Made by a program: the position numbers and the translations under genes | The notes under the pieces: model-generated | Databases searched by the model: none | Told to the model about the DNA's origin: nothing | What the model saw: only the letters and a program-made list of their open reading frames with translations | In this document: piece by piece, positions 58,848-61,330 of the stretch | Position numbering within the stretch: the stretch's first letter is position 1 | How the letters are laid out: each line of letters opens with the position of its first letter | NCBI RefSeq assembly: GCF_055900595.2 | Contig: NZ_CM148325.1 | Strand: one strand, 5' to 3' | DNA length: 64,000 nt

Positions 58848-59179
58848 GTTTTGTAACCTGTTGGTAATTACATCCCATCTGCCCGCGTGGGCATGGATGG
58901 GGCAAACTCACCCTATTTCTGGTTTAAAATGGATACCTGATCCTGAAAGTTTTCTGCCATCCACGATCCGTAAACGCGATAACATGTTTTGTCTTCGCTT
59001 TGCTCATAGGAAGAGTGAACTCTTTTGTTAGCCTGGGGTTCCTTCTGATCATTATTGTTCCTGCCTTTATCTCTTGCCACGCCAGAGCCCCCTGGATACA
59101 CATACACCAGGATGAAAACGGTGAGTTGTGTTCAAACTGTAGTACAATTCTCTCCAGTATGAACAGGAAAGAATATGCT

Positions 59180-59512
59180 ATGAACCCTTATATTTATCTT
59201 GGTGGCGCAATACTTGCAGAGGTCATTGGTACAACCTTAATGAAGTTTTCAGAGGGGTTTACACGGTTATGGCCCTCTGTTGGCACAATTATTTGCTATT
59301 GTGCATCATTTTGGTTATTAGCTCAGACACTGGCTTATATACCTACAGGGATTGCTTATGCTATCTGGTCAGGAGTCGGTATCGTTCTGATTAGTTTGCT
59401 TTCCTGGGGATTTTTTGGCCAACGACTGGACTTGCCAGCCATCATAGGCATGATGTTGATTTGTGCCGGTGTGTTAGTCATTAACTTGTTGTCACGAAGC
59501 GCACCGCATTAA
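59180..59512 (+). CDS. emrE: SMR-family multidrug efflux protein EmrE
   Basis: Start MNPYIYLGGAILAEVIGTTLMKFSEGF... at 59180, 110 aa, matches E. coli EmrE as I recall it, including the essential Glu (AEVIG); the track ORF from 59000 is an over-extension. Confidence 0.9.
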   Translation: MNPYIYLGGAILAEVIGTTLMKFSEGFTRLWPSVGTIICYCASFWLLAQTLAYIPTGIAYAIWSGVGIVLISLLSWGFFGQRLDLPAIIGMMLICAGVLVINLLSRSAPH

Positions 59513-59680
59513 AAAATAATCATCCTTGAGATAACAGGAATCTGATTTGTGCATATTATGGCTAATGTTCGGGGCAACTTTATAATTATGATTGCATTTG
59601 CGCGATCATTGCGCCTTTTTGCATAATGAGATCAATGCACATCAAATAAAATAACGATAGGTCACAACAAAGAGGTTTTT

Positions 59681-60232
59681 ATGAAAAAACTTATCGTTTC
59701 AAGTGTATTGGCATTCATAACATTTTCTGCGCAGGCCGCAGCATTTCAGGTCACTAGTAATGAAATAAAAACAGGAGAGCAACTTACAACGTCTCATGTA
59801 TTTTCTGGATTTGGGTGTGAGGGGGGTAATACATCGCCCTCATTAACCTGGTCTGGTGCTCCAGAAGGCACCAAAAGCTTTGCCGTAACTGTGTATGATC
59901 CAGATGCGCCTACAGGCAGCGGATGGTGGCACTGGACTGTTGCTAATATTCCAGCAACGGTAACATATTTGCCCGCTGATGCAGGAAGACGTGATGGTAC
60001 AAAACTTCCGACTGGTGCTGTCCAAGGCCGAAATGATTTTGGCTATGCGGGATTTGGTGGAGCATGTCCTCCCAAAGGAGATAAACCCCATCATTACCAG
60101 TTTAAAATATGGGCTCTAAAAACTGATAAGATTCCTGTGGATTCTAATTCCAGCGGAGCGTTAGTTGGTTATATGCTTAATGCCAATAAAATTGCAACCG
60201 CTGAGATAATACCCGTTTATGAGGTAAAGTAG
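59681..60232 (+). CDS. ybcL: Periplasmic PEBP/RKIP-family protein YbcL
   Basis: 183-aa ORF with signal peptide MKKLIVSSVLAFITFSAQA and PEBP motifs (YDPDAP, HHY). Confidence 0.85.
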   Translation: MKKLIVSSVLAFITFSAQAAAFQVTSNEIKTGEQLTTSHVFSGFGCEGGNTSPSLTWSGAPEGTKSFAVTVYDPDAPTGSGWWHWTVANIPATVTYLPADAGRRDGTKLPTGAVQGRNDFGYAGFGGACPPKGDKPHHYQFKIWALKTDKIPVDSNSSGALVGYMLNANKIATAEIIPVYEVK

Positions 60233-60241
60233 GATAAGAGT

Positions 60242-61039
60242 ATGCTGGCAAAAGATAGGACTAACCTAAAGATTGAAGAAATACGGATGCATAAACATCA
60301 TGAGATTCACAGGGTTAAGCCTCTTATGCCAGCTTTATGTCGTATCCGTCAGGGAAAAAAAGTTATCAATTGGGAGACGCATAGTCTAACTGTTGATAAT
60401 AATCAGATAATATTATTTCCCTGTGGATATGAATTTTATATTGCGAATTACCCAGAAGCAGGTCTTTATCTTGCAGAAATGCTTTATTATCCCATTGATC
60501 TAATTGAAAAGTTCCAAAATCTTTATGCGATAACCGATCAAATTCGTAACACGACAGGTTTCTGCTTACCTCAGAATCCCGAGTTAATATATTGTTGGGA
60601 GCAACTAAAAACATCTATTTCCCGAGGCTTCTCAACGCAAATTCAGGAACACTTAGCAATGGGCGTTCTACTTTCATTAGGAGCACATCATGTTAATTGT
60701 TTACTTTTATCAGATAGTAAACAATCATTAATAAGTCGTTGTTATAACCTAATGCTATCCGAACCTGGAACAAAATGGACAGCAAACAAGGTAGCGAGAT
60801 ATCTCTACATTTCTGTTTCCACATTGCATCGCCGTCTGGCAAGCGAGGGAGTAAGTTTTCAAAGTATATTGGACGACGTGAGGTTAAATAATGCGTTGTC
60901 TGCTATACAAACGACAGTAAAACCCATCAGCGAGATTGCCAGGGAAAATGGTTACAAGTGTCCTTCTCGTTTTACTGAAAGGTTCCATAATCGTTTTAAG
61001 ATAACACCAAGAGAGCTAAGAAAAGCGTCCAGAGAGTAA
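60242..61039 (+). CDS. ybcM: AraC-family transcriptional regulator (YbcM-like)
   Basis: 265-aa ORF with C-terminal AraC-type HTH; follows emrE and ybcL as in DLP12-type cargo. Confidence 0.75.
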
Positions 61040-61330
61040 AAGTATTTTATGAAGGAGCAACAGCATCGATTTTTATTTTAGAAAATAAATACGGCATACT
61101 CAACCTATTGGAGCCTGAACAATCCGGTGACTTCTGCGCTAATCGGGGACGTTTATAAGCACATATAATTGATATTATCGTCCTCCATCACAATTTCAGA
61201 AATGCACGTGTGATTTTTTTGCATCCGGCGTTTGGACTATGTGGAGTTCAAGAGTGGGAAAGTTACAAGAGGTTGAGGGGATAATTAAAGGGATGCTTAT
61301 GACATTAGATATCCGGATAGGTACGGATAT

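Follow-up and report, generated by a model that had tools for sequence, protein, structure and literature searches.

In the 64,000-nucleotide stretch of DNA analysed here (NCBI RefSeq assembly GCF_055900595.2, contig NZ_CM148325.1; referred to below as the window), the genes emrE, ybcL and ybcM form a small islet beside the flagellar gene fliE. Our analysis indicates that this islet is very probably the remnant of a lambdoid, DLP12-like prophage that integrated at the 3' end of fliE and was reduced to its cargo. The element spans 58828-61937 (3.1 kb) and has attachment (att) sites at both edges. The evidence, all of it observed directly, consists of the att repeats, an integrase remnant, colinearity with DLP12, a match to a phage attP, empty and occupied states of the site in relatives, and purifying selection on the cargo. 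The final part of the window belongs to the E. coli chromosome and carries, in this order, fliF (56660-58318, minus strand), fliE, emrE, ybcL, ybcM, AT-rich DNA, an insertion sequence (IS) of the IS200/IS605 type and the 3' end of yedK (minus strand); fliE is annotated as such in strain E308, which is 99.9% identical to the window. A sequence-only reading had already noticed emrE, ybcL and an AraC-type ybcM beside fliE without ybcK, followed by AT-rich DNA and an IS element, and had taken them for a degraded mobile-element remnant. This description was borne out: all three genes are intact and on the plus strand, and the remnant can now be specified as that of a lambdoid prophage. The extent proposed for the islet in that reading does take in the genes, but the whole element is the interval given above, and the IS which had been listed with the remnant adjoins the element and lies outside it.

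The sequence-only reading had suggested looking for attachment-site repeats and integrase remnants at the islet edges, and both are present; the repeats were revealed by a repeat search. The features concerned are as follows.

58533-58847, plus strand: fliE, open reading frame of the host gene, whose final six codons with the stop make up the attachment core
58828-58847, plus strand: attL core TGATGTCCATGCAGGTGTAG, one copy of the direct repeat, coinciding with the final six codons and the stop of fliE
58848-58999, minus strand: P' arm and integrase remnant piece 1, with an arm-type motif at 58887-58904
58978-59088, minus strand: integrase remnant piece 2, approximately residues 240-277 of the integrase (Int)
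61780-61917: P-arm remnant, common to B2 strains, with an arm-type motif at 61892-61909
61918-61937, plus strand: attR core TGATGTCCATGCTGGTGTAG, 19/20 against attL

The direct repeat is 20 bp long, TGATGTCCATGC(A/T)GGTGTAG, and its copies at 58828-58847 and 61918-61937 match at 19/20 positions; by our own arithmetic about 7e-4 such pairs would be expected by chance in 5.1 kb. The attR core sits 17 bp ahead of the yedK stop. In IdasGreatGrand, a temperate Escherichia phage, the reverse complement of the fliE 3' end is found immediately after the int stop codon, and in the DNA alignment the identity between phage and chromosome ends exactly at 58828. The same 20-bp core can be aligned in attL, attR, the IdasGreatGrand attP and the empty attB of Citrobacter. 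Moreover, the 64-kb window contains just two copies of the motif TGCCCCRTNNATGCCCMA, at 58887-58904 and 61892-61909, both of them on the minus strand and one in each arm, and the motif is present in both arms of the IdasGreatGrand attP as well. The two copies are probably arm-type integrase binding sites, and we regard them as candidates for this role.

Beside attL, a decayed integrase in two pieces lies on the minus strand (58889-59088) and reads towards the core. Its identity was established through tblastn against phage genomes; NCBIfam gave no match to the integrase fragment, and PHROGs gave a weak integrase match (E 0.02-0.11). Piece 1 corresponds to Int residues 387-423, with 78% amino-acid identity to the integrase of IdasGreatGrand; it contains an in-frame stop, and the region of the int stop was removed by an 11-bp deletion. 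Piece 2 is 75% identical to the phage int gene by blastn and was recovered by tblastn at E 2.4e-13 with 41% amino-acid identity, which accounts for 120 bp at 58984-59103. Int residues 278-386, including the catalytic region, are deleted, and therefore the integrase is dead. The C-terminal remnant is 57% identical to the integrases of mEp460 and Stx phages. An IntD-type integrase of DLP12 was ruled out as the source of this scar, since tblastn found no real similarity.

The three genes which the element has retained are listed below.

59180-59512, plus strand: emrE, intact, 110 aa, SMR multidrug efflux transporter, with Glu14 present
59681-60232, plus strand: ybcL, intact, 183 aa, periplasmic protein of the PEBP/RKIP family, with Ala at precursor residue 99
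60242-61039, plus strand: ybcM, intact, 265 aa, AraC-family regulator

EmrE is an SMR transporter in which the export of cationic compounds is coupled to protons. The EmrE translation from the window scored 240.5 bits against NCBIfam NF042984 (cut-off 226), carries at position 14 the Glu that is the essential membrane residue of the family, and differs from K-12 EmrE by two amino acids. YbcL scored 400.7 bits against NCBIfam PRK09818 (cut-off 277); its N-terminus, MKKLIVSSVLAFITFSAQA, looks like a signal peptide when the translation is read directly. In YbcM, Pfam HTH_18 was found at residues 185-261 (E 3e-16), which fits the C-terminal double helix-turn-helix of AraC/XylS regulators.

A blastn comparison with K-12 resolved the islet into separate blocks that match DLP12, with order and orientation conserved. 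It can be seen from the following list that the match extends well past ybcM into the AT-rich DNA.

59104-59514: emrE and its upstream spacer in DLP12, 92%
59104-59179, plus strand: the part of this block upstream of emrE, homologous to the ren-emrE spacer of DLP12-like phages, 92.2% to DLP12
59515-59525: junction point, where the 2.09-kb ylcJ-ybcK segment of DLP12-like phages is absent
59526-61246: ybcL-ybcM-ylcH of DLP12, 89%
61040-61246, plus strand: the end of this 89% block, downstream of ybcM, homologous to DLP12 ybcM-ylcH up to the start of ybcN
61256-61350, plus strand: quuD' (3' fragment of antiterminator Q), the last 95 bp of DLP12 quuD, 82% (82.5%)
61330-61391, plus strand: tandem repeat of the 20-bp unit TCGTTGTTATTAAATCTAGT in three copies, at the Q fragment's 3' end
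61397-61441, minus strand: 5' stub of an nmpC/OmpD-like porin, 14 codons, MKKLTVAISAVVAS*
61401-61779: first 41 bp of nmpC and its upstream region in DLP12, 82%
61442-61779: porin upstream region within this block, homologous to the nmpC-essD spacer of DLP12, 81.9% to DLP12 and 97.8% to B2 strains

Two segments are missing in comparison with DLP12: first, ylcJ-ybcK, and secondly, ybcN through most of quuD. At the first of these, 59514 is joined to 59526, which correspond to positions 4650 and 6739 of the DLP12 locus. The sequence-only reading was correct in placing ybcK between emrE and ybcL in K-12, as DLP12 has emrE-ylcJ-ybcK-ybcL-ybcM; ybcK may have been deleted from the fliE islet or may never have been present in it. 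In phages PhiR34_1 and PhiR47_2, ren lies immediately upstream of emrE, and viable phages such as PhiR34_1 possess the full series ren-emrE-ybcK-ybcL-ybcM-nin-Q-porin-lysis. The order int, (ren) spacer, emrE, ybcL, ybcM, Q fragment and porin stub corresponds to that of DLP12 and PhiR34_1, and the islet is colinear with lambdoid phages.

B2 strains (ABU 83972, SSGNw1, UTI89) have an intact porin of 360 aa between ybcM and yedK. In the window the rest of the porin gene was lost through a 1.2-kb deletion whose junction adjoins the triplication of TCGTTGTTATTAAATCTAGT, a unit present as a single copy in B2 strains and DLP12. Loss of the porin through the IS was also considered and rejected, the junction being that of a simple 1.2-kb deletion beside the 20-bp triplication. 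About 0.9 kb of AT-rich DNA lies between ybcM and the IS200/IS605 element. Since the Q fragment and the porin stub with its upstream region match DLP12, the AT-rich DNA is phage remnant itself (Q 3' end, porin stub and promoter region, P arm) and not filler.

The composition and distribution of the islet bear on its origin. One possibility is that the block is ancestral Escherichia chromosomal DNA, which was picked up by DLP12-like phages and lost at fliE in K-12. The presence of the block at fliE in about 48% of E. coli genomes, B2 strains included, would agree with this, and so would its divergence, which equals that of the flanking core genes: between the window and B2 strains, the identity is 97.6-98.7% over the islet and 97.5-99.0% over flanking fliF and fliG. 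Such equal divergence fits an old presence of the islet within E. coli. However, the GC content of the block is far below that of its flanks (28-46% over 58800-61800 against 54-60% in the fli genes, a contrast that the sequence-only reading had proposed to look for), it contains sequences otherwise found only in phages (the Q 3' fragment, the ren-emrE spacer and the integrase scar), and it is bounded by att cores. In addition, E. albertii, E. whittamii, Escherichia sp. E1V33, two divergent 'E. coli' genomes and 75 other species do not have it between fliE and yedF. We therefore regard an ancestral chromosomal origin as very unlikely.

These absences come from a survey in which one genome per enterobacterial species was scanned with FliE, giving 80 loci. 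A full-length integrase of the IdasGreatGrand type stands directly after fliE in 12 of the 80 species, including members of Citrobacter, Enterobacter, Kosakonia and Leclercia, and seven loci carry integrase fragments there. At many loci, for example in Citrobacter, yedF lies within 50-150 bp of fliE, which represents the empty site. No emrE, ybcL, ybcM or porin gene lies within 10 kb of fliE at any of the 80 species loci, whether in the five non-coli Escherichia lineages named above or in the 75 other enterobacterial species. Therefore, among the sampled genomes, the cargo at fliE is found in E. coli proper alone, and it is not ancestral to the genus Escherichia. The sequence-only reading had named, as what would speak against it, a gene order ancestral across Escherichia with K-12 as the derived exception; 0/5 of the non-coli Escherichia lineages has this order at fliE, and the following counts of locus types in 5,426 complete E. 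coli genomes show that K-12 is no lone exception.

fliE-emrE junction, any cargo-bearing type: 2,616 genomes (48%)
the exact variant of the window (porin deleted, IS present): about 1,030-1,065 genomes (about 19%)
porin-retaining form: 457 genomes (about 8%)
K-12 type: 1,167 genomes (about 21%)
integrase scar only: 1,146 genomes (about 21%)

The integrase scar as such is present in 5159/5426 complete E. coli genomes and in other Escherichia species, and a full-length integrase at fliE is found in six to eight complete E. coli genomes. E. coli UTAK-1 harbours a P22-like prophage of 38.7 kb, apparently complete, which is flanked by two copies of the core (locus positions 505-39249) and followed by the older integrase scar, a leucine-rich repeat (LRR) gene and yedK; this is tandem re-use of the fliE site. 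The displaced original fliE end in UTAK-1 has AGC and the phage-supplied end TCC, both for the same serine. Empty, scarred and fully occupied states of the site are thus all seen in relatives, as is expected of a defective prophage.

The wide distribution of the scar raises another possibility, namely that the integrase scar at fliE is older than the cargo and that a second phage supplied emrE-ybcL-ybcM-porin afterwards, through tandem integration and subsequent deletion or through recombination with a DLP12-like prophage. UTAK-1 indicates that tandem re-use of the site does occur, the scar accompanies differing contents in other Escherichia species, and its identity between lineages is lower (93%) than that of the cargo (98%). 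Against this, a pseudogene should accumulate differences more quickly than a gene under selection, and attR and the P arm are confined to the cargo-bearing types, the K-12 type and the scar-only type having no attR core. Such a two-step history seems to us possible but doubtful; it is a variant of the explanation by a fliE-site prophage and does not contradict it.

Neither does the adjacent IS offer a likely alternative. The element is described as follows.

61956-63702: IS200/IS605, with a tnpA pseudogene at about 62019-62444 (minus strand) and an intact tnpB at 62451-63659 (plus strand) encoding a 402-aa TnpB

Its position about 0.9 kb past ybcM might suggest that the islet was mobilised by it or was part of a composite transposon. 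However, only a single copy is present, on one side and outside attR; the islet occurs without the IS in B2 strains, including UTI89, where yedK directly adjoins attR; tnpA is a pseudogene; and IS200/IS605 elements are not known to mobilise the genes next to them. It is hardly conceivable, then, that the IS brought the islet, and the element is a later insertion which is not part of the prophage. The IS inserted exactly at the yedK stop codon (63699-63705), where YedK ends ...IQPVC* in place of ...IQPV* in B2 strains and K-12, and it has subterminal repeats at 61971-61991 and 63673-63693.

Several other features of the region were looked for. Rfam gave no RNA family at E <= 0.01 over 58300-64000, no tRNA was found in 56000-64000, although one would be expected beside a tRNA-associated genomic island, and a promoter and terminator scan gave no more sites than shuffled sequence.

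Three points weigh against a prophage origin of the islet. First, no phage structural, lysis, immunity or replication gene is left. Secondly, the P arm beside attR resembles IdasGreatGrand solely through the short motif. Thirdly, emrE-ybcL-ybcM was found in none of the intact fliE-site prophages examined. With regard to the first point, 58828-61937 contains no repressor, replication, lysis or virion gene and no intact integrase, and the element is not a functional (inducible) prophage; because no backbone gene remains, its phage origin rests on the colinearity, the att sites and the integrase scar. With regard to the second, since the P arm matches IdasGreatGrand through a short motif only, the founding phage is not IdasGreatGrand itself but a mosaic relative, not yet found. 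Taken together, the above results still argue strongly for a lambdoid prophage reduced to its cargo.

On this prophage origin, the course of events may be pictured as follows. The tyrosine integrase of the phage would have recombined at the 20-bp core, which the final six codons of fliE make up together with its stop, the phage bringing an identical replacement for the end of the gene. After integration the integrase would have lost its catalytic middle, and because of this loss the prophage would have been unable to excise. Successive deletions would then have taken away the genes for excision, recombination, immunity and replication, the nin-Q region, and the genes for lysis and the virion, in an order that can only be conjectured. 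Accessory cargo of benefit to the host, presumably expressed to this day, would have survived as EmrE, YbcL and YbcM, together with the porin that was kept in B2 strains and lost here; a regulatory link of YbcM to its neighbours may exist. No longer self-mobile, the element would have been inherited vertically, and it probably spread also via homologous recombination of flanking DNA. The IS200/IS605 element would have inserted later, just outside attR, at the yedK stop codon.

The state of the three genes agrees with survival of the cargo. Against the DLP12 copies, the ratio of nonsynonymous to synonymous divergence (dN/dS) is 0.02 for emrE, 0.09 for ybcL and 0.12 for ybcM, with dS of 0.23-0.38. 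The genes have been held under purifying selection while the phage backbone decayed, and the copies at fliE and in DLP12 are, by these divergences, old xenologs from related phages and not a recent duplication.

A variant of YbcL from uropathogenic E. coli (UPEC) is reported to suppress neutrophil migration, and one decisive residue, 'a single amino acid alteration', sets it apart from K-12 YbcL (review, PMC4810123). The ybcL of UTI89 is located in the fliE islet. The YbcL of the window has Ala at precursor residue 99 (codon 59975-59977), where the K-12 protein has Val and those of UTI89 and ABU 83972 have Thr; the Ala99 variant is not known to have been characterised. The decisive residue was reportedly Thr78 of the mature protein in the work of Lau et al. 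in 2012, and it would correspond to precursor residue 99. On this assumed mapping, the YbcL of the window, with Ala99, does not correspond to the UPEC variant that suppresses neutrophil migration. One may speculate that emrE, ybcL and ybcM (with the porin in B2 strains) form a single YbcM-controlled envelope and host-interaction module domesticated from the phage, that the copy at fliE and not that in DLP12 is the source of the UPEC suppressor YbcL, and that residue 99 (Thr/Val/Ala) is a functional switch of which Ala is a third state; we consider this rather improbable and offer it very tentatively.

The gap between fliE and yedF as a whole is a hotspot. The five non-coli Escherichia lineages keep the integrase scar and differ in contents; they have no yedK in this interval, where DUF1398/YbcV-like, ZinT-like, YedL-like and lipoprotein genes are found instead. 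The gene yedK may itself be acquired cargo; a third att core between yedK and yedF, looked for as a sign that yedK is older cargo, was not found. The 3' part of yedK in the window (63703-64000) is 93-94.6% identical to K-12 and B2 strains and 97.7% to scar-only strains, a divergence far greater than that of the fli genes. This pattern suggests recombination breakpoints near the att site. In O157:H7, the region of the K-12 yedN pseudogene is annotated as an intact effector of the type III secretion system, EspR3 (a leucine-rich repeat protein), and therefore the alternative cargo at the att site is an effector gene.

The islet may be compared with known systems. Like DLP12, which is a defective lambdoid prophage with accessory genes kept, it carries emrE, ybcL, ybcM, ylcH, Q and an opposite-strand porin in the same order, at 82-92% nucleotide identity. 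In contrast, DLP12 lies at argU and has IntD, while the islet lies at the fliE 3' end with an IdasGreatGrand-type integrase; DLP12 measures 21 kb against 3.1 kb here, where ybcK and the nin, lysis and terminase genes are missing; and the dS of 0.23-0.38 speaks for an independent, old acquisition and not for duplication. A further known system is the intG' pseudogene beside fliE in K-12, the 'cryptic prophage PR-G' scar, which is the integrase-associated K-12 locus that the sequence-only reading had referred to. It has attL and the C-terminal integrase fragment right behind fliE in common with the islet, but has yedN' (an EspR3-type LRR effector pseudogene) and yedL in place of emrE-ybcL-ybcM, and no attR core. 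As in e14 and phage 21 at icd, the phage carries the 3' end of its target gene, so that the gene is intact after integration; unlike there, the target is flagellar fliE, with a duplication of only about 20 bp.

Domesticated defective prophages were reportedly treated by Bobay et al. in 2014. The islet resembles domesticated or 'grounded' prophages in that the integrase is inactivated, phage functions are deleted, and genes useful to the host are kept under purifying selection and inherited vertically; it differs in being an extreme case, of which just cargo, att sites and small scars remain. 'Grounded' defective prophages were discussed by Ramisetty and Sudhakari (2019, PMC6379469), a paper that makes no mention of fliE, intG or emrE. 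Our literature searches yielded no account of an emrE-ybcL-ybcM islet at fliE, nor of an att site in fliE; the individual genes of the region already carry annotations in thousands of genomes.

The prophage origin accounts for the three 'DLP12 genes' that roughly every second E. coli genome has beside the flagellar operon, and it makes the 3' end of fliE a phage attachment site, used to this day across the Enterobacteriaceae. The islet is a clean case of a prophage stripped to its cargo; remnants of this type are ordinary and widespread, and no new mechanism is revealed. It follows that the emrE and ybcL of many pathogenic strains, including UTI89, belong to the fliE remnant and not to DLP12, which is relevant wherever the presence or alleles of these genes serve as 'prophage DLP12' markers, and for the comparison of YbcL variants.

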